Under the pieces are notes generated by a model, which was not told the origin of the DNA, made no database searches, and saw only the letters and a list, made by a program, of their open reading frames with translations. From NCBI GenBank assembly GCA_000934665.2, contig KZ537959.1:124001-188000 (forward strand): a DNA stretch of 64,000 nucleotides. Direction: 5' to 3'. Positions 5,272-59,336 of the stretch are shown here, one piece after another. Each line of letters starts with the position of its first letter. Position 1 is the first letter of the stretch. This DNA is from Catajapyx aquilonaris (lineage: Eukaryota). A program made the translations under genes and the position numbers.

Positions 5272-5346
<75 letters not shown>
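5272..5346. repeat. (ATT)25 microsatellite
   Basis: 75-bp perfect trinucleotide run. It explains the poly-Y and poly-N ORFs 5265..5459 and 5161..5370. Confidence 0.97.
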
Positions 5347-21280: not shown

Positions 21281-21363
21281 ATGACAAGTTTTTGTTCTCT
21301 CTTTTTTTGCAGGTGAGTACCAGACCTTGTTGTGATTGGTAGGGACTCTGGTGGAAGGTAAGG
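21281..21363 (+). promoter_or_regulatory. Candidate recursive splice site (ratchet point) with 45-nt cryptic exon
   Basis: Pyrimidine tract 21289-21308 (19/20 pyrimidine), then GCAG|GTGAGT with the junction at 21312/21313. A second donor AAG|GTAAGG follows at 21357/21358. Confidence 0.7.
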
Positions 21364-24300
21364 GTTCGATATTCGACCTTTGCGACGTAGAAAGAAACGT
21401 AGTGCGCAGTGGAGGGGGGATTGCGAATAATCCGGGAGCCGTTTGGCGGAAAAGCGCCAAGTTTGTGGTACTCGTGCCCTGCGTTGCTGCCAATTCGTAC
21501 ATGGAAATGAGGCTGGGTGGGTGGGTGGGTGGGCGTCGAGTGGGTGGGGCCCGTTTGGCCGCATGCTGTTGGCACCCCTCATCTAGCTGGCCGGGGCGTT
21601 GGGTGCTGCAGCAGCAATGGCGGAAGAGAGAGGGCGCAGATATTCGCGAACGTGTCTCTTCCGTACGTTGGCGATCAGGCGGATCAAATAGAGAGAAGGG
21701 CTGGGGATTTGCGGAGATTCGCCGGAAGAGAATCATTGGCGATTAATCCCGAGCTCCAGAGGAGCAATTTCGGAGGAAGCTTCCACTCTGGTGAAGTTGG
21801 CATCTCCTATGTCCCGCAGAGGGGGTGGCCACCGCCACTGGCTGGGGCGGTGAGAAGAAGGGAGGTGGATGAGAATATAAAAAAAATCGCGGGGGCAAAT
21901 GAAGAAAAGAGCGGGAAATGATTGAAGGGGTGGTCGGAATGAGCGGGCGGGATTGGCTGGGAGATGATGGGCTCGGGGAGCAGGCAAGAAGAAAATGATT
22001 TTGCACCGCTTCCCAGAAGACTCGCAATTTCCCACCCTCCTTCCCCTCGATCCTCCCCCTCTCCTTCCTCCACTTGGCGAATCCTTATCCCTGTCTTAGT
22101 TCCGGCTGGAAGATCACTCTGAAAGGGCGCTCCCTTAGCGCCCCCATCATTCCTCTGAACAGCATGCCCCCTCCCCAATCAACTTAAGCAGNNNCCCCCC
22201 CCGTCTCCCTTTCCTCCTGGACTAATTGATGTGCTCTTGCTGGAGCAGGATTACTTAGCCTTTGCAACTGACCTTTTCCCGATGCCCTCCCTGTCTTCGG
22301 CGACACTCGCATGTAGGAAGCCAATCGATCAACTTAATTCTTCGATTGGAAATAATTGTGTTTTGAATGCCACGATCTAGTGTCTACTCCCAAGTGTTGG
22401 TACAGGTTAGAGTGGTATAGGCTGTGATGTCCACGGCCAGCGGAGTTGAGCCGGTCCCAGAGGGGAGGCTCGGTATAGGGAGGGAGGTCAATTGGATCTA
22501 GAGTATTAACTGGTTCCGAGCCGACATGGGCTTAAAGCCACCACATTGCACAGTATCAGACGGAGTTCCCTTTGTCTTCTGGATTAAAGTCATGACTGGA
22601 AAACGATAGCAGGCAATGAGCCGAAGGGCCATCGGAATGGATCTCGATGAAGGGAAGTCAATAAGTTGCCTTTATTTATTTCTTGTTTCGGGACAAGTAT
22701 GGGATCTCACAGAGGGGAATTGCGGTCTTCTGATCTTTTAGTTATGGAAGGGGGTGCATACAGTAGTTCGGGAGCATTCATTAGGGTGGCGCCAGCAGGC
22801 ACAGAAATGGGGGCAAGGGAACTGGATCGGACCCCCCGGCCAGATGGTATTTAATATGTATGATCAGACTGATATAAGCACGCCACGCAATGTATCTGGG
22901 GTGTTCCGTAATAAGAATTAGTTTTATAAAATACAAATAATATGATACAGAAAAGCGTACCCCATTTGTTAGACTCCACGTAGGCCTACTTGTGAATGTT
23001 CTAGTGTTGTCCCGATTAGGTAGGATGAGCCAAATAACCAAATAGGTAAGATGAATGATTCATTATCTCTTGGAAGATGGTGAATTGGTGATGGGTTGCA
23101 TTCGGTGTGCAGTAACTTCTGAAAACCCTGACTACTTTGGAACTTCGATTTTAGGTGAGGCTGTTTCCTCCATTGCGTGTTCCAGATCAATATTTTTTAT
23201 GGTGTGCTAATAATAGAAAGCCATAGATACATCTGAAACATTAATTGGAATTACAGTTTTTAACTAGCAAAGTTGTTGTCTACCCCAGGCATTTCCTTGC
23301 TGTGCACTCTAGGTACTGTACCAGTGTAACATCGCTGCATACTGTATATAGGATTGAACTGAGGTGTTGGTGTCAAGTATAGCGATTTGGTGTAGGAGGC
23401 GTGGAGATGGCGGGCGGGGCGGGCCTATATGATGAGGAGGGGGATTTATAGCCTGGTTGCTATGCATGGGAAGAGGGGTTGGGGGATTGGGGAGGGCAGG
23501 GGAAGAGTAGGGAGGGTCAGCGGGCCGTGCCATCCCATCTCATCACATGGCCCCTTTTTTATCCCCTGGATAGTCTATAAATATTGACGGCAGGAGAAGG
23601 ACGGGCGGCCACTTCACTATTTCTGTCCGCCCATTCATGCTCTGATGCAGCACAAGGTGTGATAATGCGAATTTGATTCCAGGGCTGGCTAAGTATGATT
23701 CAGTCAGAAAGTTCCCGGCTGGCTTAAAGCTGGGTGACTGGTAGATTCCTCTTATAGTGTGAGTGGTGCCGTCTCGTTGGGAGCAGAGGCCGATCGGAGG
23801 CAATTTTGGGGAATCGGGCGGCGGATGGGAAAAGAGTTTTCGGGGGGATGAGCTCGGGGAGTGGATCGGACAGTAAAGAATGGCTTTGGGCCCCATCCAA
23901 AGTCCAAGTCATAGGCCGCCGCAGCAGCAGCAGCAGCAAGCAGAGAGAAGGAGGCAGGGTAGCAGTCAAGTTGGTCTTCACCTTTTCTTCGATGCTCTTT
24001 GACCAAGCGCTCTTCACCCACGGATTTGAGTCCATTCTCTTCACCTGGAGTTTCATGGCTTGTTTTGCCACTGGGGCACTCTTACGCATAATTATGCAAG
24101 TCCTGAAGTGACAGGCAGTATATTAAGTGGTGGACTTTTATGAACTTCTAAGCGCGGAGTAACTGCTCATAAATTACTTGCTGTTCCTATTTACCTTTCG
24201 CTGTTATAACAGCGTGATAAGTTTTCCTTGTGTACGAGTATCTGGGCTGGGTCGAATTTCCGAATGCAAATTTTATCGAATTTCCTAGTCCGCATGTTTT

Positions 24301-27300
24301 AATGGTCATTGGCGATGCGAGTTATGGAAGGTCGGTTGTATAATTATTGTGTGTGTCTCGTGGTGGTGCAGGCACTGCCTCCATTTGGATTGGTTCCCGT
24401 GTCCATAAAGAGAGTTAGAGAAAGGGAGGGTGGGGGAATGGGGGTCGGGAGGGGCGCCCGAGTGGGTGGGACCGGTTGGTTGGTTGGCTGGGTGGGTGAG
24501 CGCTGAAAATACAGAGCAGGGATCGATCGGGCCGCCAACAATAAATCTATTTTGTTGGGAGGGGCTGCTAAGCCCCACTAAGCCGCTGCAAGATAAACAA
24601 CGGATCCCGTAGTTATGTTGTGTTTTTACGTCTCTCTCTTCTGTACCTCTGCCGGCTCTCTCTCTCTGTCTCTCTCGTACACATAGTGCCTTGGTGCAAT
24701 TCAATTTGCAAAGTCCCGTCAAAAGCGCTCGAGTTGGAATCACCCTGGAGAAAAAGGCGAGGTGTTGACCGCTGTGGGAATAACGACGACGTCATATATT
24801 GCAAACAAGGATCTCGGAGGAGCGTGGCAGTTAGAGCGGCGGGGACACGCAACGGTCACGATACGTGGGCCCCAGAGCGCCTTTTCCCAGCATGTATTAG
24901 TGAGGGGCAAAGGATGCCCTGGGGACGCACTTTTCGCCCTATTTGGCCCTGGCTGACATGCACCATGCCGCTCTCACGGGGGCGTCCGCGACTCTGTACG
25001 GACTAGGCTGAGGTGTTCCGCAGATATGTACCGGCCTGGGAGAATAACGAGGCGGACTGTGGCCGAGTTTTGCGGAGTAATCGATCCCGTCGGATGCGAC
25101 GATAAATGGGATAGCGGATAGCTGTGACGCAATTTGTAGGTGGCTATTGTAGCCAGGTCTCACCCTCGGTGTGTAATCCGACTTAGAGTGTTGATAGGGT
25201 GTGCCCAGGCAGCAGAGCGGAGAAGAGCCGAGCGATCCGATGCGCCAATTATGAAGATGAAAGGGGAGGATAGGCGGGAATTGGAAGTGTGAAAGGCAGG
25301 AAGGGAGGGGGAGAGTAAGGGGAAGAGAGGGCATCAGGTGTAGGAGAAAGGCAAACTGATGGTGCCAAGCAGAATGGAAAGTTTGTATGGCTCTGTACGT
25401 CGTAATTGCGTACAGAGTGGAAGAAAGTTGCGCTGCCAGATGAGCCTTTACCTGCTAAACCAAGGGGAGGAAGTCTAGTTTAATTTACGAATATTGCCCC
25501 GTGCTGCTCTTTCTATTTCTCTTTGGAAGGCAGTTGCGTTATAAAAGGAGGGTTTTAAAAAAAATGATAAAACCGGAAATGTAGAAGTTATGGCCGAGTT
25601 TCTGCTTCATCACTAGAGAATAAATTAAGGGATAGTACTTACAGTATTGCAGTTGCGTGTCACGACGTAAATCAGTGGATTTAATGCGGTTTTCAGGTAT
25701 TTACAGAAAATAACTGCGAAACTTTTGTACGAATTTGTAAGCGTCTTACGGTAGGCCGAACTAAAAGGGTTTCTAATCAATAAGCGCAACAACTGCATGC
25801 AAAGCAATTCCAGCAGAATGGACAGACCACATATTTTGATGCGAACCAACCCCTTCTTTGTTTGTGCATTTCAATTGGGCTTGTTCGCTGTTGCCATTTA
25901 TTTCTTTCGTCCTTCAACTGCAGAATGTGTGTCGTAAACAAGGCTCGAACCCAAGGTATCCTAGTGCGGTGGAATGGAGATGGTAGGTGGGGGTGCAATC
26001 CCGGGCCGAAAACGGCCCATTAAGCATTTATAAATGGTTGAGTGGTCACAACAAGCAGGGCTGCCTGCTGCGTCCCAGCTAGCCAGGCACAATATGGTAA
26101 TGGACTTTGCTCTGGAACGGTCAGCTGCAGATGGACAACTCCATCTCTGCACTCCCCGTGTCCCTCCCCACCACCACCCGTATAGCAGTATACAGTGGGG
26201 GTCTCACCTTGCGAGGTGTGTTTTGGAGTGGTGCATCTTTCAGCAGCGGGGCTGGTAGGCTTGTTTCTCCAAATGGGAAACTTCCACGACTAATTTTTGC
26301 AAAGTGGAAGTGGCACGTCGCTTGGGGACAACCTCTGTTGTTGCAGGCTGAAAAAATACGACCCGTAGAGGGTGGATGAGATGGGAAAGGGCATTGGGAG
26401 GGAGGGTGGGGGGAAGAGAGGGAGAGAGAGAGAGAGACACGCTTGCAATTTGGACTTGTCGCCTTGCGCAACTTTGCTCATTATTCGCCGAAATGGCAGT
26501 AATCCATACTTCCCCTGACGTGCCTCTCAGCAATTTGCAACTTCCGACTCGATGGAGTTCGCATTTCTTCCTCTCCCCAAAGTTTTTCTCCCTTTTCTTT
26601 CTCACAACTCTTTTCTCTTTCTCTTCCCGCCCCCCTTCCTTCCCTCCCTCCCTCCTTCATGTAGAAGAAAAAATCTTTTCTTCTTTTCTTGCCCCCGGAA
26701 GATTCGTTGGCGACAGTCCCTAACTTCTTAATCTTTCCACCAAGTGCCGCCCACTTTTATTAAGTGATCAGTAATTACGGTCTCACCGTCACCATTTTCT
26801 GCGGGCCATGACTGAAGCGATTGCCAACCAACCCAGGGTCCTATATTGAAGTGACCCGCAGCAGGAAGCGAGGTGTGGACTCGCATTAAGGCTGGCAACC
26901 TGCCCATAATGAGTTATTACCGGCAGGGTTTAACGCGCTGTCGGCTGTTAGTCTATGATTATGTTAATGTGAGATCTATTAATTAACTGCCTAGTCATCA
27001 CATCCGAGACCCACGTTTTGCCAGTAATTGCTTATTACGTGGCGTAAACCCAGCCGGCCCTTTTGCATCTGGCTCCTCTGCCCCGTGCACACACAGGACT
27101 TTCTTTTTTTGGAGGAGGGCCTACTTGGGGGCAGGCTTCGTGGTTTATCTGCTGAAGATTGCCCCAGGCATGCCCCGGCTCTCCTGGAAGTGGCCGCCGA
27201 TGTTTGTTGGCTGCCCAAGGAGCCTAGTAGTAGTGTGACTTTCAAAGTTAGGCAAAGTTTGGAGGTCGTCGGAATTTCCTAAAGCGCTGCCTACCTTGAG

Positions 27301-27877
27301 TTGTTTGCTTGAGATTCAAGTCAAACACGAACCGAGATCGAATTAAGCGCCAGGGAAGGTTCAAACTGATGCAGCTGGCGAATCAGCAATAGCTGACTGC
27401 AGGAGGGACTCGGGTCATATTTGTACGCGCTTATGTGCTGTATCTACACGCTGCGTTGGTCTACTCTGGCAGTGCAGTTTGGCCTCCTACAGGCTAATTA
27501 TTTTCCACTCTCGTCACCGGAACTTGAAGGAAACTAAATGTACACATTTTAAAGTGCCTTTTCACCTTAGGTCATGGCACACTTGTAGCTGTCAGTCACT
27601 GGGGAGGAAATGCATCTTTTCATTGTGGCTGACTGAAAAATTGCTTTCTATTACATATAATTATTATCCCTTTTACTTAGTCTACAGTTGAGGCATTTTG
27701 TTGAAATTTGATAGTTAATCTGTTGTGATATGTGATATCTGAACCATTTCACAGCTCACGAGAGAAGGAAATGTTCGGATTACTTTGCCCTTCTATCCGC
27801 TGATTATCCTGAACAGTTAGATAACCTATCCGCCTCTGTTGCGTTGCTTGTCGGGGGCTGTCCAGGGGCAAATTGCA

Positions 27878-28055
27878 CTAGCAGTAATGACAGATAATAC
27901 TGTAGTATACAAACACCGAGACAGCATTGCGTAGTAATTTTGAATTCGTAATTAAATGCGAATGCCAAATTTCAAATTTTAATGTTTGACAGAAACTTTA
28001 TTCCGGCGATGATAAGTTTTGTTCAAGAAGGGCGAATGTTTTGGAACACTCTGTA
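27878..28055. mobile_element. Tc1/mariner-type element end (single TIR), fragment; inner boundary uncertain
   Basis: The reverse complement of 28039-28055 reads TA-CAGAGTGTTCCAAAA, resembling the TA-CAGGGTG... terminus of mariner/Tc1 TIRs. It adjoins AT-rich sequence. No partner TIR was found by eye. Confidence 0.4.
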
Positions 28056-34000: not shown

Positions 34001-37000
34001 CGCAGCACATCCTTTCTATCTGACGGATTCTGGATCAGACGCCAATGAGAGGAAGCTCAGTGCTTTTATGAAGCTGTGTCTTGAAAGTGCGTGTTTGCAC
34101 TTGGGTCCTTGAGAGAAAAGGAAAGGAATGGATCGATTGCGAGTCGCAGCATCCAGAGCCGCAGCAACGAAGGATCATCGCCGCAGACCAAAGAAGGGAA
34201 ATGTGTGCCTTCTCCTCTCTTACCAATTGAATTATGGGAGCAAGCCAGCCAGCCTCCTTTTCCTCCCACCCACCCAGCCCCATTCCTCTCTCGACGTTCC
34301 CCCAACGCAATTTTACTACTTGTCTGCTGTATCGACCGGCAGCGGGAACATTGTCGTACCAAGTTTGGGTTCGCCGGAGAGATGCTACAAGTTCGCCTCT
34401 TTTTATTGAATAGGCTTTCGAATGACTTTGCAGATACAACATCCGCAACGCCTCAGAGCATTTCCTCTCGATCCTACAGTTCTCTTTTGTGTAGAGTGAA
34501 TTTATACGACCGGTATGCTGGTGATTTATGAGGAACATCGCTGACAAACAGTGATAAGCTGATAACCAATGACGGGGTTCCTAGTTAGCCAGTTTGTCTG
34601 GTCCGATACTTTACTTGTCATTTCCACACTTTTGATTGCTTTTGAGCGTTCATTTCAGGAAGTTGCCTCAAGTTACTAGTAGTTATGATATACTGCTTTT
34701 AAAGTGGAGCTGAGGAGTGCGAAGGCACATAAGCTCAGCAGTGAGCGCTCTGAATATGCTCTAGTGCCAAGATATCATTTTTGACTTGCCTTAAAAAAAT
34801 CAGTGGACGAACTTTTTGAAGTTGGAATATTCACCGTCTAATTTGACTTCGAACTTTAAATAAATGGCACGCCAGCTCCACCTCATTACTGAAGAACACA
34901 TAATCTCCTATTGACATACAAGTTTGTTTTAGATGCTATAAACATATATAGACAGATGACCGAGGCTCTCAGTGGATTTCCTGGCGTAACGGTCCTCTTC
35001 AGATGTGTTGATTGGCCACAGCTCCTAGGCAGAATCTTCCACGAGAGGTAGGATCAAGAGTTCTTAGGCTTCATGATTGAGCCTCCCAAGTGCGAGGGAT
35101 GTGAAGGTTTGGTACTCTGATGCTTGTGGCAAGTTAGTCCTAATTTGTAGTGAATGTTGAAGATGGGTTAGGACCGCAGATTCCGGTTGGCGGGATTTGC
35201 GAATCTCCACGCCGCACCTAACAATCCGTCTGTTGAAAATAGCAGTTAATCAATTTCATCCTTGTCACTTGCAGTTCTTGTTGTCGACTTGGTACACTTT
35301 GCGGTGTTGATGAGATTGGATGGGATTTGTGCTGTGGTGGGTGGGTGGGTGAGTTGCCTTTTGGGAGGGGGTGGACGGGTGGAGGGGGGGGGGGCTGGAT
35401 GGGAGGACTCGTTTTGCAACTGGTGTTTCGCCTCATGAGCTTTAGCTGCTGCAGCCGAGGAGATAATTAACTTGTTCGCCCGAGTTTTAACCTCGGACAA
35501 AGTTTCTACTTTGTTCCAGGATTCTGCCCAACTGACTTTTCCGCCGGAAATACGCCACTGTATTTTTTCTCATCTGCTCACTGCTTTTCTCCTCGAATTT
35601 TTGACGCAATTCCGGGTGCGCCGTGGTATAGCAGGTGGGCTTGGCAGCTCTAGAGTGTTGTTCTTTTAAAAAAGTTATTCTATCTGTATATACTGTATAT
35701 ATTTTTAGTGGGAAGCGAGTCGATAGCTATCACATGGGGCTGAATTTCTCATAACCAGTTTATCTCTGCACGTGGTGAACAAAAGAAATGCCATGAACGA
35801 TGTTCAGGCCGGTTGATACACTTGATTGGGACGACGGCCGCTGGGTTTGATTTATTGCGGCATAAGCACGTGCTAAAAGTGATTAGCAATGGCGCACCCT
35901 GTGAACAGTGCTGCTTGTGAACATGCGTTATTGATGAGAGAGACGATTAACGGCTATTGACATGCTGGAGCACAATACCTTGCGGTGTTTGTCGAGTGGT
36001 GGGTGCCTGCCTGCTGGAGGACCATTTTGCTGGGAACAAAACTGTATATGAAAGCAGACTGTATCTCTAATTGGGTTTATGCATAAACAATGAGATCGGG
36101 CGCTGTGCGTAATAGGGTTTGAACTCGGTCGGGAGCCTCGACTTCTTCCCCTTCTTCTCGAGATGAGGAAGACAAAAGGGGTGGGGTGAGTGAGCCATCA
36201 TCTGACTTCACGTCATTATCGCCTCAATACCTTATGGAATTATTGATGAGGTAGAGGTCGGAGGAAAGATGGCTGCTTGCCGAAGGGGGCGGGTTGGGGC
36301 GGGGGTTGGAGCGGGGAGCATTAATATTAGAATTCCAGAGGCAAGTGCAGTGGCAGCCCGCTTTGCTCAGCCTTTCCAATCAAATCGAAACCGCAGCACA
36401 ATACAGTATATCCTTATATCCTTCCTGCTGCTGCTGTCGCTGCTGCTGCTGTTGCAGAGAGGGTTTTCATTGCTGCGGTCATGCGGCCACCATTTATCAC
36501 GTTCTCTCTTGTGCCCACCGCTATGTGCTGCCCGAGGGGGCTTGCCACTAATAACATACCTCCTCCTTGCACTGGGCAACATTTCCTTCAAACGGTTATT
36601 TTCTTTCCGAATTAAATAAAATGATGTTATAATATGAGGTAATTCATGCTACCGATGGGCACACGAAGGTCAAAATTCTGCCCCTCTTCTCTATCACTCT
36701 TGTGACTATCAAGTCAAAATAATTACAAATTTAACTGTGATTTTTATCATTTCTGACACTATCAGTATCTCTGTGCCCCAGAATTTGTCTTGAGGATACC
36801 CGGGGTCTATGGGATGACTGATATGATTGGAGTCAATCAATGCCTACACTCCCTTCACAATGAACACGGAAATATCAGGAGGCGCTTCCTATAGCTACTA
36901 TTTTTAAAGTGTGTGAGTGGTTATGCAGATCCACTATCCTGGAGCCTACATAGCAGATTTTTTTCGTTAGTTAGGAGGGTTGCGTGAGATTTGACTTTTA

Positions 37001-38659: not shown

Positions 38660-38820
38660 GTTGGGGAAAATCCATAGATTTATTAATGGGACTTGGGCGA
38701 TTAGGCAGAGGAGATAGAACGTGGTGGCATACAGTGTTGAGTTTAAGCACTATTGCAGTGAGACTATTGGATAATAGTCGACGGGAGATTGTGGTGGCAG
38801 AGTCTGTTGAAATGGGCTGA
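38660..38820 (+). mobile_element. Possible highly decayed CR1-type LINE ORF2 C-terminal fragment
   Basis: The translation ...RTWWH...AVRLLDNSRREIVVAESVEM loosely parallels the CR1 ORF2 C-terminal pattern (TRGH...VVxxWNxLPxEVVxAxSV). It sits in an AT-rich block. The similarity was judged from memory only. Confidence 0.25.
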
Positions 38821-41817: not shown

Positions 41818-41838
41818 TAGATAGATAGATAGATAGAT
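41818..41838. repeat. (TAGA)5 microsatellite
   Basis: Direct reading of the sequence. Confidence 0.9.
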
Positions 41839-43806
41839 GGGTAGGTGGTCGCTATTGGACAAATGCATCTATTTGCCAATTGAATGGTGGTAACGAGCGA
41901 GCCGCTGTTTATTTGTATTCTGGTTTGCCAAACACGCAGCGAATGATGAGAGCAAACAGCACTTTTGCCTGCTGCAACCTGAGCCAAAGGTCCATTCATC
42001 CACCAAAGGGAAGATCCTCCACTTTCTTATTAGCGTGCGGACTGCGCCAGGCGAGCCTCCCCCCTCTTTCGCTCCCTCCCTCTCTGCTTTCCTCCCACCC
42101 ACCCATCCCCCCCCCCCTAGTTCCTCCTTACCTACCCTCCCCACCCTTTGGCTTATCGATCCAGGAGGAGAGAAAACTTGCATACATATCCCGTCTGCTG
42201 CTACTTTATGCTCACGGCTCCTTAATAAGCGCCTTAGCAGCACTGCAATGAGCGCAGAATTGAATGTGTTTGGCCCGGCCAACGCAGGCTCATGTTACAC
42301 ACGCCTCTGAGGTAATCAACATTCATCAAGCCACAAGTCGGGGGGACTCTTCTTTCACGCCTTTTGCAACTGGAGGTGGGATTACGCCTGCCTGGATAAT
42401 CCCTTTCCAGATCCAGCTTATTAACCGGTGGGGCCAAGATCTCTCCTCCGTGCAGCGTAGCCAGGACCGTGTCATTTGGCAAAGTGGTGGCTCCTAATTG
42501 GGAAATGGTAGCCGCAGTCATACGTACTCATAGAATGCCATACGTGGCATCCATTCGGAGCCTCTGTGTCCTCAGGCGTGGACCCTCGATTAATTAGCCC
42601 GTATATAGTAGAAAGAGCGGTGGGAAAATGAAGTGATGTCCGCGTGCTTGTCTTTGCACCGGATCGAACACCCCCATCCCTGGGTGTACTATATGCACAT
42701 AGCCGAACGTTTCCCTGGGAAGTGTCGCGGATGTGGGTCTGTCCGACTGGCTTGCCTTGCCGCACCAGGTAGAATGGTGTGGGTGTAATTTAGGGGGAGG
42801 GGAGGGGGTGCAGTGCATAATGGGAGCGGGGTGGCCCCCGAGACTCATTGTGCTCAGTGTTGCATGCAAACTCGGGCTAATTAGCAGGCGACCGAGTAAT
42901 AGCCCGACCCCCTCACGATGCCAAAAGCCAAGACATAAGTCACGAGGCCGGCGGGCTGTGATGTAGGGAGGGAGATTTTGATGGGGAAAAAAAACCCACC
43001 CCCCTTTGGTTTAGTTGTTTGAAGGGCGTGCACGGTAGGGGGGACGTGTCTCGCGGATTTCTGTGAGGCAAAGCACGTGCTGCGCTGGAAGGCAAAGTCC
43101 CCTTCCTGTCCACCTGAAATTGAATATGTTGGCTGGATGGATGGCTAGCTCTGTTTTCTCCCGCTAGTCTTGGTCAATATTGTCTTGCTCAGAGTGGGAT
43201 CTTTTGGGTGGGGAGTATAGGATGAAAACGCCACAAGTCATGTCAGCAAATACACTTCCGGGTGCTTTTATTAGCGGTCATGGCTGATACACATAAGGCC
43301 CGATGGTTGGACTACACGTGCCGGATGCGCCACGAGCAAAAAAGGTTATCTCTACATTTGCGTCGGAATACCGACCGGCTGCAAGCGGGGTTTGACCAAA
43401 GATGTCGGGATCGTTTTTTCTTTCTTTTTTTGTTGTAGAAAATAGCAGGAGTGTCGACAGACAGACGGATGCTCAGAATGCCAACTACAGCTGGTTGAAG
43501 GGGACCAAATGCCTCCATTTCTCCAACAATTTGGCCCGGATTCAACCAGCTAAAGCCTAGCACTGTTCTCTCTTGCCTTTCCTGCCTCCCGGCTTCCTTG
43601 CCTCTCTGCCACCCTTTCTCTCTCTCTCACCTGCAGCCGGCGCCGCACTCACTCACGGTGCACCTCACTATAATGCGGGATTCCTCACTGCGGTTCCTTC
43701 ACAACACCACTTTGCACTCACGGCACGTTTCACACGCGAGTCACCATGTTGCACTAACACACTGGTACGGCCTGGAACTAGCCACAAGCACTAAGGTTGC
43801 TTCCAT

Positions 43807-43887
43807 CAGCCAGCCAGCCAGCCAGCCCCTTCTTCCTTCCTTCCTTCCTTCCTTCCTTCCTTCCTTCCTTCCTTCCTTCCTTCCTTC
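43807..43887. repeat. Compound microsatellite: (CAGC)5 then (CTTC)14
   Basis: CAGC x5 at 43807-43826 and CTTC x14 at 43832-43887. It explains the FLPS/RKEG-repeat ORFs. Confidence 0.95.
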
Positions 43888-44088
43888 TCCATCTGGGGTC
43901 CTGCTGGTGGAGCGGTGCAGAGACGTGTGTGTGGAAGTGGACGCTTAGGAGTGCAATGCACGTACGGCTTTTCCAGGGGGGTTGTGGGGGTGGGTGGATG
44001 GGGTGGGGGGTGGAAAAATCCCCCACAGCACGCTCGGGTATTGATTTTCGCCTCCTCTCCTACCCACACTTGTTCCTTCTCCATCTCT

Positions 44089-44124
44089 CTTCTTCTTCTT
44101 CTTCTTCTTCTTCTTCTTCTTCTT
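44089..44124. repeat. (CTT)12 microsatellite
   Basis: 36-bp perfect run. It explains the poly-S/L/K/R ORFs. Confidence 0.95.
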
Positions 44125-47100
44125 GGCCGGCTTCTTGGGCACACGTCCTAGTGGAGGGCCGTTTTAGTGGACACCACATCGGAAGTGGACTAGAAAGAGG
44201 CTGGGGAGCACTTTTGCAGGGAAGGTGATCGGGTCAGAGAGAGTGGACGGAAGAGGTAGAGGAAGAGGGCGGGGGGAGGAGGTGGAAGGAAGGAGGGGAG
44301 GAGGTGGTGGAGGAGAACGGACAAGAAGAGCTTGCTGGGTGCAGACTGCCGCACTGCACTGGTGGATGGGGCCGGCGCTGCCAGGAGCGCACCTCGCCCC
44401 CCGCCCCATCCCCGCCCCTCCTTCCACCCCCACCCCCTACACACCCATCCTCCTCCGACTGCCCCGCCCTCCTACCGACAGCGGCCTGGCCCGACACTAG
44501 CCCCCGACGACGACGGTCGACCCGAGCTGCCAATTCCGCCGCTGCTCCTGGCCCATATGCAACCCATCCAGCCTTCTCCTTCCTTGTCTCTCTCCACTGC
44601 TGGGTCAAGATCGAGAAATGCCGGCCCGGCCTAATTTGGGCCCACATTCCCCCCACTCCCTCCCTCCCTCCCTCATCTCTCCCCCTACAACCCTGCGTGT
44701 ATTTATGTGAAGAGAAGGCCCACACCCTCCAGCTACCCCCAGCCCCAGCCAGCCACTCTTTTCCTTCTCTCTTCCTCGACACCATTTTTAGACCCGGCAA
44801 GACGAGAAGGCCTCCCCTCAAATCCCATCCCGTCCCATCTCACTTCCGCCTTCCTTCTCTACTTCCGCCCGTCTCTCCTTGACCCTTCGGCCTCCTCACA
44901 GGGTGGGACACTACTACATGCTGCACAGTGGCATGGAAAATTCCTTTCTTTAGAGAACCTTCTTCAGCAGACCGTCCGGCTCAAAATAGGGAAGTGGGCG
45001 AAGAAGGGTCGGATTTGGGATTTAGAGCTCCGGAAATCCCGGATTGCCTTTCGGGCTACATGACAAGTAGTAAGCTGGCAGAGCGCTGCTGATGAGATTG
45101 AGGTTTTGGCCGCAGTCCGATGGCCGCTCATTTTTTAGGCGTTCCGCTGCTTTATGACTTGGGTTGGCGAGCCTCATAAGCTGATTGGAACGCGAAGGAA
45201 ATTAAGTTACGACCTTTTTCCCCGCGCCCAAAATCTGCGATAGAGCCATCGCGCCCATTTTGGGGCCGCGATTTATGCCGCAGCTGCCGCGCCGGAACAT
45301 CACGATCAGGGGATTCGATAGGATTGCCCCGTCACGCCCTTCCCTCCCATGCCCTCCCAAATTATGACCGTGACGCAGTGCGTCTGAGGGCCGACACAAT
45401 TTGATAGTGTGTATGCTGGTGTGATGTCATTTGCAAAGATGGAAGCGCCTAAGTTTAACTCGGGGCGAGGGGATCCATGACAGCAGCTGCTGGGGGTGCT
45501 GCTGCTGCCGCATTGTTACAGTGTGCAACGCGGACTCGACACACACACTCACTCACGCACGCACATGTGGTGGCTGGAGCCAAGCAGCAGGGGAAGAAGG
45601 CGGCTGCCTCCCATTACTATATTTAGCCCGAGTAACACGAGCCCAGACACATAACCTCTGCGCAGGCTCACTCGATGGACACACTGACGCGTGCCTGCTT
45701 TCAACCACCGACCCACTAAACGACCAACAAGAAAATAAAAAAATAAAAAAAGGTCGCAAATAGGAAACACGCACGGCCTTGCCCTCGAGTAAGGTGAACA
45801 AACCGGCGCAAAACAGGAGTCGACTACTCCAGAGTAACATGGCTGTGGATGGGAGTTAACAATACATTAATTAATAGGGCGTGCAGGTGATTGAATGGAA
45901 AAGGTCGCCGTCCACGCCCACCCTTAATACCTGGGCCTCGCCCTGTGTGGCCGACGCCCCACCTGGGCTGCCCATCAGTTATGGGCAGTTTGAATCGTGG
46001 TCAAAGAGTACCCGCAGTAGGTCGAGTCAAGTACTACTAGGAAGAAATTGAAGCATGCCAAGAATCTCCCCTTCTTGCACCTCATCCCCAACATATTGAA
46101 GCAGAGCCTGTTTTTAGACCGGTGGGGAGAGGGGAGGGGAATGGAGAGGGGGAGAGAGAGAGCCCCAGCTGGCAAGTCAAGACCATGCACAACGTATGGT
46201 AAAAGTGGCTTCTTACGTAACTTAACCTTCTTTTCCCATTTCTGTACAGACACTGATCACATTCCTCCTACCGTTTCCTTATGTCTTGGAAGGAAAGATA
46301 TGCGTCTGGGTCTGGCTGGGTATTGATGACTGCTGCAGCCTAAATGGGAGATAAGCTGGCGTAGATTAAATGGCACGGTACTGCAACTGTCATTTAGTTT
46401 TAGTTAGATCAGTGTTTTGCGTCAACACGCGTGTCACTGGCGAATTTAATGGAGTGCACTTTCAGTGCAAGAGTAATGGCATTGCATAATGTACCGTATA
46501 TGATACCGCTAACATTACCACGATTTGCCTGAATCCTGACTAGATTTCTATTGCGTATCCTTGTTATTGTACTGTTTACTGGTATACGTCGACTTCGAAA
46601 TGAGCCTTATTCTGTATACACATGCATACCGAGCCTCGTGAGGCTCTGATAGCTCTGGCCTATTTGGCTTTAAAACCATAGCTGCAATGTGCAGGAAAGT
46701 CGCGTTTTGTTCTCCCTTACTGAACGTTGCAGGTACAAATATTTTTGATATGGATAATACAGCTTCTGTACACTTAAAGGTCTCTGCATTTTATGTGAAT
46801 TTCTTGACAACATTACTGTGAGGACCATTTTATTATTACTGTACATGTAGTACAGTTTGGATGTCAATGAGTGGACTGCAATCTTGATACCTTTTCTTTG
46901 AAAACAGTTATGTTGAGAGGTGAATTAAAATTGAGAGAAAGAACTGTAGTGTTTGCTTGTGTATGCATATAATTGTGATTGTCGACTAACTGCTCCAGAT
47001 ATTTTACCTTTGATGCTTTCAGAAAGATACAGATATACAGTATACATGTAGATTAAATGTTGAACAAAACGTTACATAATCAAGTGGTGTGCTTTATCCA

Positions 47101-49830: not shown

Positions 49831-49831
49831 G

Positions 49832-49862
<31 letters not shown>
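49831..49862. repeat. (GCCT)8 microsatellite
   Basis: 32-bp perfect run. Confidence 0.93.
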
Positions 49863-52800
49863 TTCCTTCCTTCCTTGCCAGCTGAAGCGCCAATATTCAC
49901 TTTTGGCTTCGGGCACAAGAAAGACATCGGTATAAGGAAAGGCAAGGGGCCGCGAGAAGCCTCTGCCCGCACACATGCATATCTGTTCAGCTGATGGAAA
50001 AGGAGAAGGAAAGTGACTTCGTTTCTACCCATCTCACCCTTGAGCACCAGGAGTCTGAGAGACTGGTGGAATGTGCTGCTTCTAGTGCACTCATACAGTG
50101 TCTTACGCTTTCTTAACCTTCACTATACAATCGATAGCGAAGGTTTCTGACACATCATATGGGCATTTTTGTATTCAGTACACTAAAGGCATTGAGGTAT
50201 ACTTACTGATTCTTCGAAAAACAACATTTATGAGGTATTTTTTATCGAATATTTGCAGCTTCATTATTAATTTGAGCGTCATGACTTTACACTAGACCTA
50301 CATACTGATATTATAAATGATATAGGTATACTGTTAATTTTGTACGGGAGGCATCATGGTGTCTTGTTGCGGTCATTGCGCTCTCACTACTCACATCTGA
50401 ATAATATAGAGAATATCCTCACGCAGTAATGACGCCTTCCGGGACATATGATTTATATAATTATCAACGTCTCAGACGAGTTTTTAAGGAATTGTTGCCT
50501 GTTTATTACTAATTACCTATTTGTATAGGTATGTTGAGAAATATCTCTTGTGATCCACCCTGTAGAACAAGAGGGATAAATGCTTACCTCTAGAGCCAAA
50601 GTGTTCAAGATTGACTTTGGAAAGCAATGAAACCAGCAAGGACAGTGCCCCGTCAAAGATAGTTCTGTGAAGTATAAATAGACAACGCTTTGTGCATGTG
50701 GCTCGCATTATATGCTAGAATAGAATTTGCGGCGGAGGATGAGAGGCGTAATTATTTAGGGTGTTGCACTAAGCTTAAACATTGATATGGCCATAATGAA
50801 ATGGCGAGTCGCGTAATTTGACTGCAATGATTACTCGCTTATCATTTTCAATTGAAGGCTATTGGCTGGTTCTCTCTCATTTGTGTGTCATGAATCATTT
50901 TTGGCGAGGGAGTCGTCCCTGGAGGAAGAATGAGTTGGCCCTCCGGTGGAGTCTGGTTCCCACTTAGATATTTGTGGTATCACAAAGTGGAGCTGTGGAG
51001 TGGAGTTTGCAGCTATGATGTAACTCTTCCAAGAGTAGAAGCCTTCTCATTCCTACCTTGCTTTGCCTGCCATCTACAATGAGCAACATGTACGCCCTCA
51101 AGCTTTGCTGTTCCTCTTCCACTCGCTCATACATACGTATATCAGGTACTGTATAGCTATCAGTGCAGCAGCAGTTTTATGTGGTGGCGATTCCGGGGAT
51201 TTGCAGCCGACGATGTACATTTTGGAATGACGTGTAAAGCATACCCGATTGACATGGTTCATTTCTCAGCGTACTGATGGTATTGTCCCTTTGTCCTGAA
51301 TAGAAGACAGTTGAGGTTCATCATCTGGTGCAGTTAGTGGAGGAAAAGGCTAGCACGTGCTGTTGCGGAAATGGCTGTTCCTGTCCCAAGAAGGGTCTGC
51401 ACAGACCCGAGGAAGTTTTAAAATGCAGGAAGGCAGCAGGCACGTGGACCGCACGTGTCCGACCCGTCCTCTCCCTCCGCCTGCCCAGGGCCTGCCTGCT
51501 GTCTATTTCGGGGTCCGTGTCCCAGCTGTATACGCGCTTCCGACTGCCGCATCCCATCCAGGCAACTAACCAATCATCCATCCATCCATCGGTCACTCCC
51601 TGAGGTACCGGCCACTCAGCCTGCAAATTGCGGCGGAAATTAATCAACGCGCGTATCCTTAGGGATCACTTTTCCCGGATGCATACATATATCCCGACGA
51701 GTGCATGCATGTGCCTCGTCCGTTAGTCCGTCCCGCTGGAAGTGTCACTTGGGCCGCCCGTAAAAGAGAGCAAGGGAGGAAGTGGAGCGGGCAAGATGAG
51801 CCCATCATCCGGGTCCAGACAACGTGCTTGACAAGCGGCTTCTGATCCCGAAATTGGCGCCGGATTCTGCTGACGCTGCGTCATCATCTTCCTTCAAGAA
51901 ATCTTATATTTTACTCCTTCTATCACTCGCGCTTCTTGACAACCTCCTTTGCCACTTTTGCCAACCAAGGCGACGCCTGGATACTGGAGGGCCTTACTGT
52001 ACATGAGAGGGACCGATCATTATTTAGGGTAGGTCATGGTTGATTGATCATCTAGGCGTCTCCAAGGGTCGGAACATTTGCTGTTTTTCCCGGGTGGGTT
52101 CAGTGGGTGAAAAGGCCGTAATTGGAACCCAGTGAGTATTGCAACATGGGCGTACGAATCCTCGCCAATGCAATAATGCTGCTTCCATCTCAAACGAAAA
52201 AGAAAGAAAGGACGAAAAAAAAGAGAGAAGGAAGAACAGGGAAAGACGTGACATGCGCTTGGCTCAAAGTAGAAACTTGGAGAAACTCCTTCTTGCGATA
52301 TTGCTTCATAGTTCTGGTTTCCGCTCTGACAAGGCCGCGCCAAAGGAGGAAAAAGTGGCAGCCGCAATAAAAAAAAGGGGGCAGGCAGGCCCGTATGGGT
52401 TTGAGCAGCAATAAGTCGGCAAGGGGGGAAAAAAACTGCGGCGCCTCTTCTTAAGGGACAACCGTCTCCTTCCGGCCCACCAGAAAACGAACAGCATCAT
52501 ATTTTTTTGATCTATTTTTTCCTCATTATAACGGCCGAAAAACTTATATTTCCAAGTTTGAAGTCAGTTATCTATCTGGTTGGACAGTTTGCTTGACTTC
52601 ATCTATGACTTTGGCTAGAATCACTATACTGGCTGACTTTTTCAGAAATTTACCAGCCTGATGGAGCTTCCTGAAATGCACTGAGGCGCCAGAATATTTT
52701 GAGAGAAAGACATGGCGAGAAGTTATGTCTGGAACTCGGTGTTGTTGACAGTTAGTGACATTTGTACCCTAATGCTTGCGTTCACATCACCTATAAGCTG

Positions 52801-54506
52801 TGACCTTCGATCTAATGACATTTTCACCGAACTTTTAAAAACTGGAGCAGACCTTATCATCTTAGAGCACCATTAGCGTATAAGTTGCGGGAGCTTGATT
52901 TAATTTCATTAGGACCCCCTTTTAAAAACCGAGCCGTTCTTTCTTCTGATTACAAGTTTGAGCTATAACCGAACACGACTCCCTATCAGCAATCTACAAG
53001 AGGAGCTGATGAGTGCAGCGAGTGAGACGCGAGTTGGACATTTCCCCAGCAGTTGATTTGATTTTTGAGGCAAAGTGGAAACGCATGAACGGTCAGAATG
53101 AAAAGAGGCTGACGATGGATACCTTTGTGGAGCGGGGCACGAGGGAAAGAAAGAAGGGGAGGGGCGGTGGTTGGCTGGCGGGAAGGGGGGAGGGGGAGTG
53201 GTGGAACGTGTGGATATGACAGTTAGCGAGTGTTTAGTTGTCGGCGGCCGCTTCTGTAATGAGCCAGTGGAATGTTAGCAAGAGTGGCAAGTCATGTTTG
53301 GCGCCCCCGTGATGAATTTTCATAGTCCAGTATGCAGCAGTAGCAGCAACCCTGGGATTTCAATTCCGAGACACTCCCTGGGCATATATTCTGGCGGTGG
53401 TTCACCGTAACCAAAGGAAAAGGACATGTGTGTACGAATCACCTTGTACTTCGGATGGGATTTTTGTGTCGACGGAGCTAAATGCGACCTTTTAGGAGAA
53501 TGGGCGGGGAAGCCTATTCTCATGATAGTTATGACCATTCTGGGCCTTTTCTGCAGGCGGTGTTCTGTGCTCCTTTGTTGCGCGGGACAAAGATGCACAG
53601 CGACAAAAGGGAGGTGGACTGGGTGGGGGTGAAAATGACGAATGTCTGCTCTTATTCCTTCGCCTGCACAACTTTAGCTGTTAGTCGGTGAAAAGCTCTT
53701 TAATAGGCCGAGGTCGTTACGGTGCGGAGAAGAGGCAAGTTTCCTCATTACTTTGCCGCCTTAAACACGCCAATCCAACTTAATCAAGGAGGGAAAAGAG
53801 GGAGGAGAACACAGAGGCTGGTCCAAAAATGACTCGCCCATGGAAATTTCTCCCACCACTTATTTCCATTTCATCGGAAGCGACTGCTGGGATATATGAC
53901 CTGCACTCTCCACCAAGTTTCATTCCGCCAACCCACACCCTGTACTTCTGCACTGGCTTACATGGGTGTTATTACGGGCCGAATGGTGCCAAGTTGTGCT
54001 GAAAGAGGAGATGAAAAAAAGTGTGGTCGCTTAGTAATGGATCTGTTTGGCGTGGAAACAGCAGGGCCATGCTTCAAGGGGAAGGGAGGGTGGAGCCTGG
54101 GGAGAAGGAGGGGGGGAATGAGGAGAATGCGATTTGCATGTCGGGTAAGTCTTGGAGGAGTCATCTGGGTGTCGTGGCGAGAATATAGAATTGGGAAGGA
54201 AAAGAAGAGGGGAGGGCATTTACAACAAGCTCTTCTTCAATATCCGTCCAGACACGTTTCATTTTCCGCCCAACCGCTCATTTTTCTTATTAAAAATTCT
54301 CATTAGTTCTCTCCATCCGCCATTCCTTTTTTTAGCGGGAGAAAACACATCGCTTTCTTCATTTTCGTTTATCTCGCGATTAAGAGGAAACTTCCGTTGT
54401 TCGAGTACACCTGATTCAGCAGGAATAGTCCGTGCTGCATAGGAATGGTGTTTCTGAATCATTTATTTACTTTCCTGATATTTGGGCCAACATTATTTCT
54501 GCTGGA

Positions 54507-54532
54507 GCTGGCTGGCTGGCTGGCTGGCTGGC
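54507..54532. repeat. (GCTG)n microsatellite, ~6 copies
   Basis: Direct reading of the sequence. Confidence 0.85.
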
Positions 54533-57500
54533 AGCACTCGCCAATCGAAATGCATCGCCGGGAAAATTCCGCAAAGTTTGCAATTCTCCTTCCTCCTTTT
54601 CTCGTTTCTTTTCTTTTCTCCAATTTTTTCCCCGAGGATTCCAAGTGTGTCGTGGGGCGCCGCACTCGGGGATTAATTTTAATTTTATTAATATCGGGCA
54701 AAAATGTATATGAAGGCGAGGCCACCATTCATCTCCGGGAGAGAGGAAGAAGAAATGGAAAGGGAGGGAAACTTTTACTGCGCTTTCACCACTAATCGAG
54801 CTCGTATTTCATCAAGGAAGTTTTCTCTCGGTGCCGTCCCCTTCCTCTTATACGAGGGAGCATTGTAATATAATAATCATAATAATGGTCGAACTGGGTC
54901 ACACTGGCCACAAGGGTACGTTGCTGTTCCATTAGTCAGGTTTTGTCTACCTGCGACTGGTGGAAGGAAGACGGAACGGAAGAAGAAAGAATTGGGGTTT
55001 CTGGCCATTGATTGAGATACCTTGGCCCCAGCAGAAGATCCCCTAGGAGCTATTAGCGCAAAACACATGAAGCTAGCAATATTTCTCTCGCTCTGCTGGG
55101 CTGACCTGCGCGCTTCTCTCCGCCCATCTCCTTCTTTCTAATTCGGAGGAGACATTGGGCCATTTCGCATTCTCAGGTTCCTAATCTTCTATATATTCAG
55201 AATGGAATGTCTTTCACGCACGGCCTCTGGTATTATCGCTGCAGAAGTCGTCATCAAAGTTATGATCCAGAGGAGATTACACGCTCATTTCGCGATCAAG
55301 TGGTAGGGACAGGGGTGAGGGTGGGGTCCTGCCGACAAGGTCCTGCCCCTGATGGAAGTGAGATTTGAGGAGCCTCTTATCTGATGTGCTGTGAGACGAA
55401 GGCAGGAGGCGACCGGATGGAAGAAATTGGCCGCAGAAATGAAAGCGATTTTTTCTCTCTCTCTCTCTTCTCTCTCCCTTTCCATCCTCTTATGTTCCTT
55501 TCTCTCTCCCCCGCTTTTTGTGTTGTTGTCCTGGGGACGGTGCCGATAATCGATTGTTTCCCTTGGCCCCACCCACCCTCTGGTTGTACGGACTCCCTGC
55601 TGGATGCAAGGTCGCTAGCTTGCTGCTGACTACGTGTTGGAGCTGTGGTCAGCATCATTATCGCCCACCTGGCGCCCCCCACAAAAAGAGATGACGCCGC
55701 CTCTTTCGGCTAGTGGCGCCAATATCCGCTGCTGCCGTTGGGGACATAAATTCCCTGAAGAGTGGTCGCAGCTGATCTTGCTTTCGTTCATTCCGCTGCT
55801 GCACTCTGGAACCGCAATGCCGACCGGAGCTTGCAGAGAGGGAGAGAGAAAGCAAAGTGCAAACTTGGCCACTCTTACTCTTCATATCCCAGCTCTGTGT
55901 GAAGAGGGGAGGGGGGGAGGATGGAGGGATGGGAGGAGCTTGTCCACTGGAATTTCTTCCACGTTCGGCTGCAGGCGGGAAAGGATGCTGGATTTCTGCT
56001 TTTTAAGAAAAGGAGGGAGAGAAAGAGTAGAGAAAAAAATGGAGATGGTTGTGGGGTGGGGCTTTCTGGAAATTGGGGATTCGGTCTCGGGTCCATTTTG
56101 GTGGAAAGTGGCCCGAGGCCGTTCGGCCCTAGAGATCGGATCTTTTTCCTTCCTCTTCTTAGGGGAGGGGGGTGGGCGCGGGAGATGGGAGGGAGGGAGA
56201 GGGGAGAAGAAGAAGAAGAAGCAAGCGGGACCGGGCAATCATTTCAGATAAACCCCCAAATTGAAAAGAATTGCCTGCGATCCCTGGGCGCCAAGGCCGA
56301 TCCTTAGCGAATGCCAACTCCGCGATTCGTCCATCCTACGTGCACTCCACAGTACAGCACTCCCCACTTGATACTGCCGCTCAACCGCTTCAGCCAGACT
56401 TTGGGCCCAACGTAATGACTAGATGCGACCGTAAATTACAGCTGCGTTGAGGGGCCCGCGTATATAGAGGGGAGGTTAATCTCGGAAGAAGAAAGGCTGG
56501 TGGAAAAGAGTCAGGGTTCTAACAGCTCCCGTGGCTCGAAAGGATCTCCGGCAGAAGCAGGAGTTGCCTCCCCGAGCTTTCATATCCGCTTTTCTTGGAA
56601 GGTGTCCGACCCCCTTCTTCCTCCTTGTAATGAGCCAGGGCTCTTAAGGGCACCCTGGCGCCGACGGAGAGCCAGGCCAACTTTCCAGGCCCGAACAGCA
56701 TCAGAATTCCAACAGCTCTTGTTCGGTGCTGCTGCACCAGCCCGACGTCGGACTCCTTTTTGGCTGTGTGCGTGTCGAGGCAGAGCTAACTGAGATAAGA
56801 CTCTGGCAGATAGCGCGTAAGGGACGCTAGGAGACAATCGGAATGCTTGAGATTTCCGTAGCTCCGACTGCAATGCGGACGGGCCTGTTGGGAGTGTCTT
56901 ACGGCCCGCCCTCCTAATGTTCCGTCCCTGGCCCACATTATATGATGTGGAGGACAGGTTTTTGGTCAGATGAGAGCAGGTCCAGCCAAGTCTCGCCTTG
57001 AGCGTGGAAGAGAAGAGCGGTGACCGTGATCACGATGATGCCTACGGGATAGAATTATTCCTCTCCAGCCCTCCTTGATTCCCCTTCCACCACCTCTCTC
57101 CTCCCCCACGAAACCTCCTCCTCCCAAGTGGCAAATATCTGGTTGGCGGGAAGGGAAGCGAGTCAAGTGGCCTAACGAAGGCTTGTGACGGGCTCTGAAT
57201 GCCAAATTCACTTATTCCTCTCCCGAGGAGCCAAAGGAAGGAAGACCAAGTATGAAGAATCCTGGGAGAGCAGGATGGCTGCTGCCTGCCTGCATGGATG
57301 GATGGCTGGCGAAAGGACAGAAAGGGAATGAAAGAAGAGCAAAGGGAAAGAGGTGTTCCGCATTCCGCACGCTTGTTAGATCGCAATAATCCCCGATGCT
57401 GCTGGGAGGCGGTGCACCATCGTACAAGGAGGCTCCATGCATTTTTATTAAGTGGCTCCCATAGCCAACAAACGGATCAGAGTTACACGCGTTTGAACCC

Positions 57501-58352
57501 TTTCAGTTGCGGTCTAGAGAAGAAGCGTGTCATTTGGTCGACAGTTGGAGAGGAAAAGGAAAGGAAGGAAACAGGAGGGGCTTATTTGTAAAGGCCATTA
57601 GCGCGGAGGCGTTTTGTAACGCGCAATTTAATTTCGCAAATGGCCATACTCTTGCTCCTCGACGCCTTCAGCCCTCTTTTTTCCCCCCTCCCTCCCTCTC
57701 TCCGGATATTTCGGTCCGGATCGATAACTGTCGCCGCCTTCTTCTTCTTATATGGTTTCTTCCTTCTCCATTTGACTCCTCTTTGATTGGAAGGGCACTG
57801 GCGGGATGGTGTTGGGGGTGGGGAGAAGGGGCTCCCTGCCTGCTTCCTTGCTTGTGGAAGAGACCAAGTGCGGTCCCTGAGATTTCCCCAGCCCTTGGCA
57901 ACAGACCGGCAAAGGACTGCTTTTTCACGCTTCACGCATTTAGAGAGAGAACTCCCCGATATCCAGAGAGGTGGGAACGACGGGGATTATGGGTTCAACA
58001 TCGCCCACCCATCCCCCGGCTTTCCTCTTGATCGAAATTCATTACATTTTTCTGGAGGAGGACCCCTGGACTCCTTGCTGTTGGTTAAGACAGTCGGAGT
58101 GTGTCACCCTGCTCTGGGTCGTTCAGAGGGCGTTGCAAATGGCCAACAAGTGCAGTGTGTTGCTGCAGCGTACTTGGAACATTTCCGGCACTTGCAGAGC
58201 AAATATTATTGTTGGGACCGGGTTGGGTGCGAGGGGACCTTTCCCAAGGGTAACAACCCTTGCGAAGGTGGACCCAAGGTGGAAAAGGGCCAACGGAATC
58301 ATGCTCACACTGTCAAGCTCACTCGAGGGTGACAAATAAGAGCATTCTGTGC

Positions 58353-58376
58353 TGGGTGGGTGGGTGGGTGGGTGGG
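58353..58376. repeat. (TGGG)6 microsatellite with G-quadruplex potential
   Basis: Six GGG tracts separated by single T. Confidence 0.85.
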
Positions 58377-59228
58377 AAGAGAAGGGGTGGGGGAGGCTGG
58401 CAGCCAGGAATCCATTTCGCAAGGCCCACGAAGCGAGAGCATCGTTATCAGGAGATGCGGATGCTGCATGAATCCAAATGCGAAAACTCGGCCGAGCCTT
58501 GAGGCTAAAAGAGGGTGGGGCTGGGAGAATCGGGGGGAGGCTGGATTTTGCCATTGTTGAGTGTTCTGTCCATACCGGCTTTTGTTCAATTCTTGCCGCA
58601 TTGTTGTCCTGGAAGGATTAGCGATAGTGGGGCGTCGCACCGGCAAGTGAAGGACACAATCGGACTCTGTGCAGCCAGGTCCCATTATGGACTCAGCGTA
58701 TGGACACTGTTTATAGTATATGCGGTATAATAGCCTCTTTATGTATGCGTGGTCCGGCTGAAAAGGAGATGGCTACAGATAGGTCTCAACATCGTCCCAC
58801 TGCGCACATACTCATAATGGGATCCTCTCCTGTACGCCCAAACGATTTGAGTCCATTTATCATAGCGTCGGGACAATGAAATGTCGCACTTGCATGATGT
58901 CGAGTGCTGTTTCAATGAGAACTTGTTAGGAATTTCCTTCCGGGCAACAAAGGATCTTGTACTGCGGGAGAATATAGCAATGGCGAATTTGTGTCGGGGA
59001 GACTTATCATGTGAACTGTACTGACAAGTTGGTCAGAATGTAATTAACACTGTGCGCCATACTGGATTTTGATAATGCGACATATGCGAGCTATTTTGGG
59101 AGACTTGTAACGTCATAGTTGGTCATCTAAGTGATTTTCACTGTACGGTAATGACGTTTTTGGCATGTTATGTTAATTTTAGAGCAGTTTACGCTGTCAA
59201 ATGTGATAAATTAGACGTTTAGAATTGT

Positions 59229-59336
59229 CTAATAATTTCTTGTAAATTAATAAGCTTATTTTCGCTCCTTTCAGGTGAGTTATGCGATGCTATACCACCA
59301 CTTTACTGACTCCGCTTTGTATGCCTGCATGTAAGT
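59229..59336 (+). promoter_or_regulatory. Candidate recursive splice site (ratchet point) with 56-nt cryptic exon
   Basis: Branch-like CTAAT (59229-59233) and TTAAT (59247-59251), pyrimidine tract 59255-59272 (16/18 pyrimidine), then TTTCAG|GTGAGT with the junction at 59274/59275. A consensus donor GTAAGT follows at 59331-59336. Confidence 0.72.

Follow-up and report, generated by a model that had tools for sequence, protein, structure and literature searches.

Candidate ratchet points in the window

A 64,000-nt stretch of Catajapyx aquilonaris DNA (contig KZ537959.1, assembly GCA_000934665.2, positions 124,001 to 188,000; hereafter, the window) was analyzed for two + strand sites at which a 3' splice site appears to be joined directly to a 5' splice site, the arrangement of Drosophila ratchet points. 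On balance, the junctions 21312/21313 (site 1) and 59274/59275 (site 2; a slash marks the junction throughout) are probably Drosophila-type recursive splice sites in a very long + strand intron, as judged from their sequence. Site 1 reads tttttgttctctctttttttgcag/GTGAGTAC. Site 2 reads taagcttattttcgctcctttcag/GTGAGT, with the acceptor half at 59251-59274, or cttattttcgctcctttcag/GTGAGTTA in a longer reading. Each junction is followed by a candidate cryptic recursive-splice (RS) exon that is closed by a second donor (Table 1).

Table 1. Coordinates of the two candidate ratchet points, the third copy of the 9-mer and the microRNA gene in the window
Feature	Coordinates	Strand	Description
Branch-point-like motifs TTCAT / TGAC	21278..21285	+	about 29-32 nt before AG; read by eye
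Candidate ratchet point 1, acceptor half	21289..21312	+	tract ending GCAG; TT at -5/-6; 17/19 pyrimidines
Candidate cryptic RS exon 1, 45 nt	21313..21357	+	opens with the putative regenerated donor GTGAGT (21313-21318)
Downstream donor of RS exon 1	21358..21363	+	AAG/GTAAGG; GT at 21358, 45 nt after the junction
Branch-like motif TTAAT	59247-59251	+	about -25 from AG; read by eye
Candidate ratchet point 2, acceptor half	59251..59274	+	tract ending TCAG; TT at -5/-6; 15/19 pyrimidines
Candidate cryptic RS exon 2, 56 nt	59275..59330	+	opens with the putative regenerated donor GTGAGT (59275-59280)
Downstream donor of RS exon 2	59331..59336	+	CAT/GTAAGT; GT at 59331, 56 nt after the junction
Third copy of CAGGTGAGT	2099..2107	+	atcgtaatcag/GTGAGT; donor-like only
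mir-133 precursor hairpin (Rfam RF00446)	43482..43558	-	62.9 bits; between sites 1 and 2

The pyrimidine content of site 1 was the highest among the 204 + strand AGGT sites also having a good donor. Stop codons were present in 3/3 frames of candidate RS exon 1 and in 2/3 frames of candidate RS exon 2, and the length of the latter is not a multiple of three. The spacing between the two sites was 37,962 nt. A first-pass annotation of this DNA had described a shared architecture about 38 kb apart, composed of a tract, CAG/GTGAGT, 45-56 nt and a second donor, and both its coordinates and its description were correct.

The 9-mer CAGGTGAGT, which spans both junctions, was counted across the window. 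It started at 2099, 21310 and 59272 on the + strand and had 0 copies on the - strand, confirming the three and none that had been reported. The earlier expectation of about 0.24 copies per strand was close to the 0.12-0.28 expected on the + strand under strand-specific Markov models of orders 0-5. In dinucleotide shuffles, the mean was 0.50 copies for the + and - strands combined, and at least three copies occurred in 1/100 shuffles. The flanks of all three copies were unique within the window, so sites 1 and 2 are not copies of a repeat.

The third copy, at 2099, was without a pyrimidine tract, had AA rather than TT at -5/-6 and fell outside a relaxed candidate list. This copy may reflect chance, or it may be a normal donor, perhaps belonging to an upstream exon that lies 19.2 kb ahead of site 1.

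A weaker combination of acceptor and donor was observed on the + strand at 23153 (ttcgattttag/GTGAGG), 1.8 kb past site 1. It has 12/19 pyrimidines and TT at -5/-6, and is without a downstream donor.

An E-box reading of the CAGGTG core was rejected. CAGGTG had 14 copies on the + strand and 20 on the - strand, where about 16 per strand were expected (64,000/4,096), and an E-box would leave the tract and the second donor unexplained.

Frequency of the composite architecture

All 368 AGGT sites of the window (204 on the + strand and 164 on the - strand) were scored for pyrimidines among 19 upstream positions and for matches to GTRAGT out of four (R, purine). At least 14/19 pyrimidines together with at least 3/4 donor matches were found at only two of the 368, namely 21311 and 59273, both on the + strand and both with 4/4 matches. 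About 2% of the AGGT sites in the window reached at least 15/19 pyrimidines, compared with 2/3 of the full-donor sites.

The same architecture was sought in 800 simulated windows, 400 of order 1 and 400 of order 3, with a site defined by at least 15/19 pyrimidines, TT at -5/-6 and AGGTRAGT. Such sites occurred at a mean of 0.0025-0.005 per strand, and two or more were found in 0/800 windows. When a strong donor 30-80 nt downstream was added to complete the architecture, 0/800 windows contained even one site. Among sampled real positions of the window, a downstream donor at this distance was present at 1.8% (GTAAG[GT]) to 3.3% (GTRAGT or GGTRAG). The composite architecture at sites 1 and 2 is non-random.

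Comparison with known recursive splicing

In Drosophila, 197 ratchet points were described in 130 introns, with Ubx, kuz, Bx and luna among the host genes (10.1101/006163, Duff et al.). Their pyrimidine tract is more prominent than in ordinary introns, and TT occupies -5/-6 in 196/197 of them versus 43.76% of all fly introns (10.1101/006163). The same study placed the branch points of recursive lariats mostly at -36 to -21, gave host introns of 11,341-132,736 bp and removed segments of 2,596-63,580 bp, and found the ratchet points strongly conserved (10.1101/006163). Among the predictors of such sites in flies, conservation is the strongest. According to excerpts of two further sources, recursive 3' splice sites in flies are stronger than ordinary ones (Pai et al., PMC6110457), and every fly ratchet point includes a cryptic RS exon that is skipped as the regenerated donor wins the competition (Joseph et al., in PMC8605326).

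Sites 1 and 2 resembled these ratchet points in several respects. Acceptor and donor are juxtaposed at AG/GT, as GCAG/GTGAGT and TCAG/GTGAGT, and both tracts are strong with TT at -5/-6, a feature in which the 2099 copy fails. The second donor closes an exon of 45 or 56 nt, similar to the exons of about 50 nt in flies (excerpts of PMC8605326). As in flies, the sites lie tens of kb apart without an annotated exon between them, and their spacing is inside the fly segment range. Motifs that resemble the branch-point consensus by eye, at about -29 to -32 for site 1 and about -25 for site 2, fall within the fly zone of -36 to -21 and may be branch points. Cryptic RS exons of Drosophila are non-coding and generally out of frame; since the candidates here carry stops and one of them is out of frame, they fit the cryptic, always-skipped exons described in the same excerpts of PMC8605326.

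CAGGTGAGT had 48 occurrences in the supplementary files of PMC6110457, which cover fly recursive sites, so the GTGAGT form is usual in such sites. Both sites here are of this form, whereas many fly motifs displayed from those files have GTAAGT. A further difference lies in the kind of evidence: the fly sites are backed by junctions, saw-tooth patterns, lariats and conservation, whereas the present ones are known from their sequence architecture. Sites 1 and 2 are described here as well-formed but unverified candidates, whose sequence follows the rules reported for ratchet points and cryptic RS exons in Drosophila.

Known cases of vertebrate RS exons are few, and these exons are often included and come under regulation by the exon junction complex. 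As proposed for the present candidates, exon definition comes first and the regenerated 5' splice site is used next; the vertebrate RS exons occur in long genes, within introns of great length (excerpts of PMC6224609 and PMC6110456). The Ubx exons mI and mII (51 nt each) are likewise short exons with a donor sequence straight after the acceptor; they differ in being conserved, frame-preserving coding exons (excerpts of PMC8605326), whereas the candidates here carry stops in most or all frames. For mosquito, beetle or bee, a literature search on recursive splicing had no relevant paper among the matches listed, which is not proof that none is in print.

Coding content and other features of the window

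No coding exon was detectable in the window in a Pfam scan of all 348 stop-to-stop open reading frames (ORFs) of at least 70 aa (133 at E<=0.01 and 215 at E<=0.001), searches that are insensitive to short exons. To that extent, the earlier statement that no convincing coding exon lies between the sites holds. Only two Pfam matches were obtained, and both were below threshold. MAGE_N (E 0.0068, 17.3 bits, cutoff 26.6) fell in a low-complexity ORF at 43809-44147 on the - strand and was rejected. WH_Egal, the Egalitarian winged-helix domain (E 3.4e-4, 21.5 bits, cutoff 27), matched a 76-aa + strand ORF at 35439-35666, between the sites. This match is probably spurious: a HMMER search of 1.84 billion representatives returned three tandem-repeat proteins, each matched in 5-9 stretches and none with an Egalitarian domain.

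A homologue search with the longest ORF (262 aa, 6829-7614, - strand) was empty, as was a protein search with a 179-aa ORF running across site 1 on the - strand. Exact scans of a metagenome collection with the cores of sites 1 and 2 returned 0 loci. The window contained no tRNA, and nothing besides mir-133 reached the Rfam gathering score; Hsp83_3_UTR (E 0.053) and HOTTIP_3 (E 0.62) scored far under theirs and were rejected.

The observed/expected ratio of CpG was 0.75. Microsatellites were present at 5272-5353, (ATT)27, and 43828-43887, (CCTT)15, together with several G/A-rich minisatellites across the window. There were 17 N at five places (654; 2621-2631; 14259; 20575; 22192-22194), all clear of the sites discussed.

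mir-133 between the two sites

The mir-133 hairpin exceeded the gathering score of 55.5 and covered model positions 1-74 of 74, and its + strand reading scored 44.5 bits. The presence of this gene identifies the window as animal DNA. The first-pass annotation had suggested an arthropod; the animal origin was supported in this way, and the further step to an arthropod was not. The 5' arm looks protostome-like, which we take to make a vertebrate origin unlikely. At Rfam thresholds, the window yielded no mir-1.

A cluster of donor-like motifs was observed on the - strand at 43625-43725, just upstream of the hairpin. It contains GTGAGT at 43721, 43656 and 43652, and CAG/GTGAGA with GT at 43630-43629. 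This cluster may be where exon 1 of the primary microRNA transcript ends.

In vertebrates, mir-133a-1/mir-1-2 lie antisense in an intron of MIB1. In five flatworms, miR-133 is near a Mind bomb gene (excerpts of PMC4405270), and excerpts of PMC2394756 give no host gene for insect mir-133. No mind bomb domain was found among the ORFs of the Pfam scan, an absence that would be expected of a fully intronic window. Since long introns not uncommonly contain an antisense microRNA, mir-133 neither refutes nor supports recursive splicing at sites 1 and 2.

Transcribed strand and weight of the evidence

Several observations weigh against recursive splicing of a + strand intron. The sole identified gene, mir-133, sits on the - strand within the interval, and transcription there runs in part opposite to the proposed intron.

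The base composition was ambiguous as a strand indicator. On the + strand, G exceeded C and T exceeded A in 16/16 bins of 4 kb. The GC skew ranged from 0.009 to 0.153, with minima at 16-20, 32-36 and 40-52 kb, and G-rich purine repeats on the + strand contribute to it. In mammals, the coding strand shows G>C and T>A, which would agree with + strand transcription. In fly introns, the coding strand is C- and T-rich, and the concatenated skews are 1.18% and 0.82% (excerpts of PMC5786239); by this pattern, T>A, unlike G>C, is consistent with a + sense transcript. Furthermore, the donor-like hexamers had no strand excess (GGTRAG, 23 on the + strand versus 25 on the - strand; GTRAGT, 28 versus 21).

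Of all the evidence, the motif count is the weakest. When R was allowed at +3 and C at -3 was dropped, the resulting AGGTRAGT had an expectation of 1.1-1.9 per strand, and at least three copies on one strand were found in 159/400 simulated windows of order 1 and in 80/400 of order 3. Because such triplets are frequent in simulated windows, the bare count is unremarkable and non-significant. The three copies of CAGGTGAGT had been correctly counted in the first-pass annotation, and their evidential weight is poor.

The window was picked after a scan of many windows, which introduces some selection effect, and the rules applied to it are derived from Drosophila. The sequence-level part of the recursive splice site reading (tract, TT, AG/GT, downstream donor and spacing) stood up to analysis; beyond it, we infer a transcribed + strand, an intronic position of the window and actual use of the sites.

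The distribution of AATAAA gave mild support to a + strand transcript. It occurred 28 times on the + strand versus 52 times on the - strand, with order-1 expectations of 19.3 and 28.7. Its scarcity on the + strand relative to the - strand fits a long + transcript protected from premature polyadenylation.

Alternative explanations

The segments of 45 and 56 nt could be ordinary short exons of a + strand transcript that are sometimes included, as part of a 5' untranslated region, as alternative cassettes or as expressed RS exons like Ubx mI and mII. The strong acceptor and strong downstream donor (AAG/GTAAGG and CAT/GTAAGT) at both sites would suit such exons. Given their stops in 3/3 and 2/3 frames and the one length that is not a multiple of three, they could only be non-coding or poison exons. 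An ordinary exon also needs no perfect GTGAGT right after the AG, yet both sites have one, and we consider this explanation unlikely.

The sites could also serve a + transcript in another way, without stepwise removal of the intron, as decoy or poison exons or as U1-binding sites that act against premature polyadenylation. This would account for a non-random architecture and for the under-representation of AATAAA on the + strand relative to the - strand. The + strand shows no excess of donor-like hexamers, and the tight AG/GT juxtaposition is specific to recursive sites; a role of this kind is therefore improbable.

Alternatively, CAG could be the end of a pyrimidine-rich non-coding exon, for example an alternative first exon of a + strand gene or long non-coding RNA, so that sites 1 and 2 would be plain 5' splice sites. 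CAG/GTGAGT is the full donor consensus, and the 2099 copy looks like such a donor without the acceptor half. At sites 1 and 2, however, the upstream 20-24 nt are shaped like a 3' splice site (tract, TT at -5/-6 and YAG, where Y is a pyrimidine), and branch-like motifs are present at about -25 to -32. A plain donor also leaves the second donor about 50 nt downstream unexplained at both sites, which makes this explanation quite improbable.

Finally, two unrelated motif coincidences in DNA around mir-133 that is non-transcribed or transcribed from the - strand would be compatible with the simulated AGGTRAGT triplets, the selection of the window and the strand of its sole gene, but the simulated rarity of the composite site and the high pyrimidine content at two of the three full-donor sites make chance very improbable.

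Proposed splicing route and its implications

If sites 1 and 2 act as Drosophila-type ratchet points, each would first be recognized as a strong 3' splice site. The second donor would delimit a short cryptic RS exon, and exon definition would thereby aid recognition of the site. Ligation of the upstream exon to the site would regenerate GTGAGT as a 5' splice site where the two meet. This regenerated donor would then out-compete the donor of the RS exon, so that the RS exon would be skipped and splicing would go on to remove the next segment. Between sites 1 and 2, the removed segment would be about 38 kb.

Recursive splicing is already well known in flies and vertebrates, and the present case, if real, would be another instance in another animal. 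If the sites turn out to be unused, they would serve as a warning that a near-perfect ratchet-point motif is insufficient by itself. If they are used, the fly-type ratchet point operates in this species, down to details such as TT at -5/-6 and the roughly 50-nt cryptic exon, and the window would be part of a very long gene, probably developmental or neuronal, that gene finders would miss.

The fullest form of this proposal, in which the window is the interior of a giant recursively spliced intron with an antisense mir-133 in an invertebrate outside Drosophila, is a long shot. Its layout would resemble that of the vertebrate microRNAs in MIB1 and echo the flatworm linkage to Mind bomb. If it is true and the host is a mind bomb orthologue, the locus would suggest that this pairing of gene and microRNA is ancient among bilaterians, and ratchet-point splicing would reach further than flies and vertebrates.

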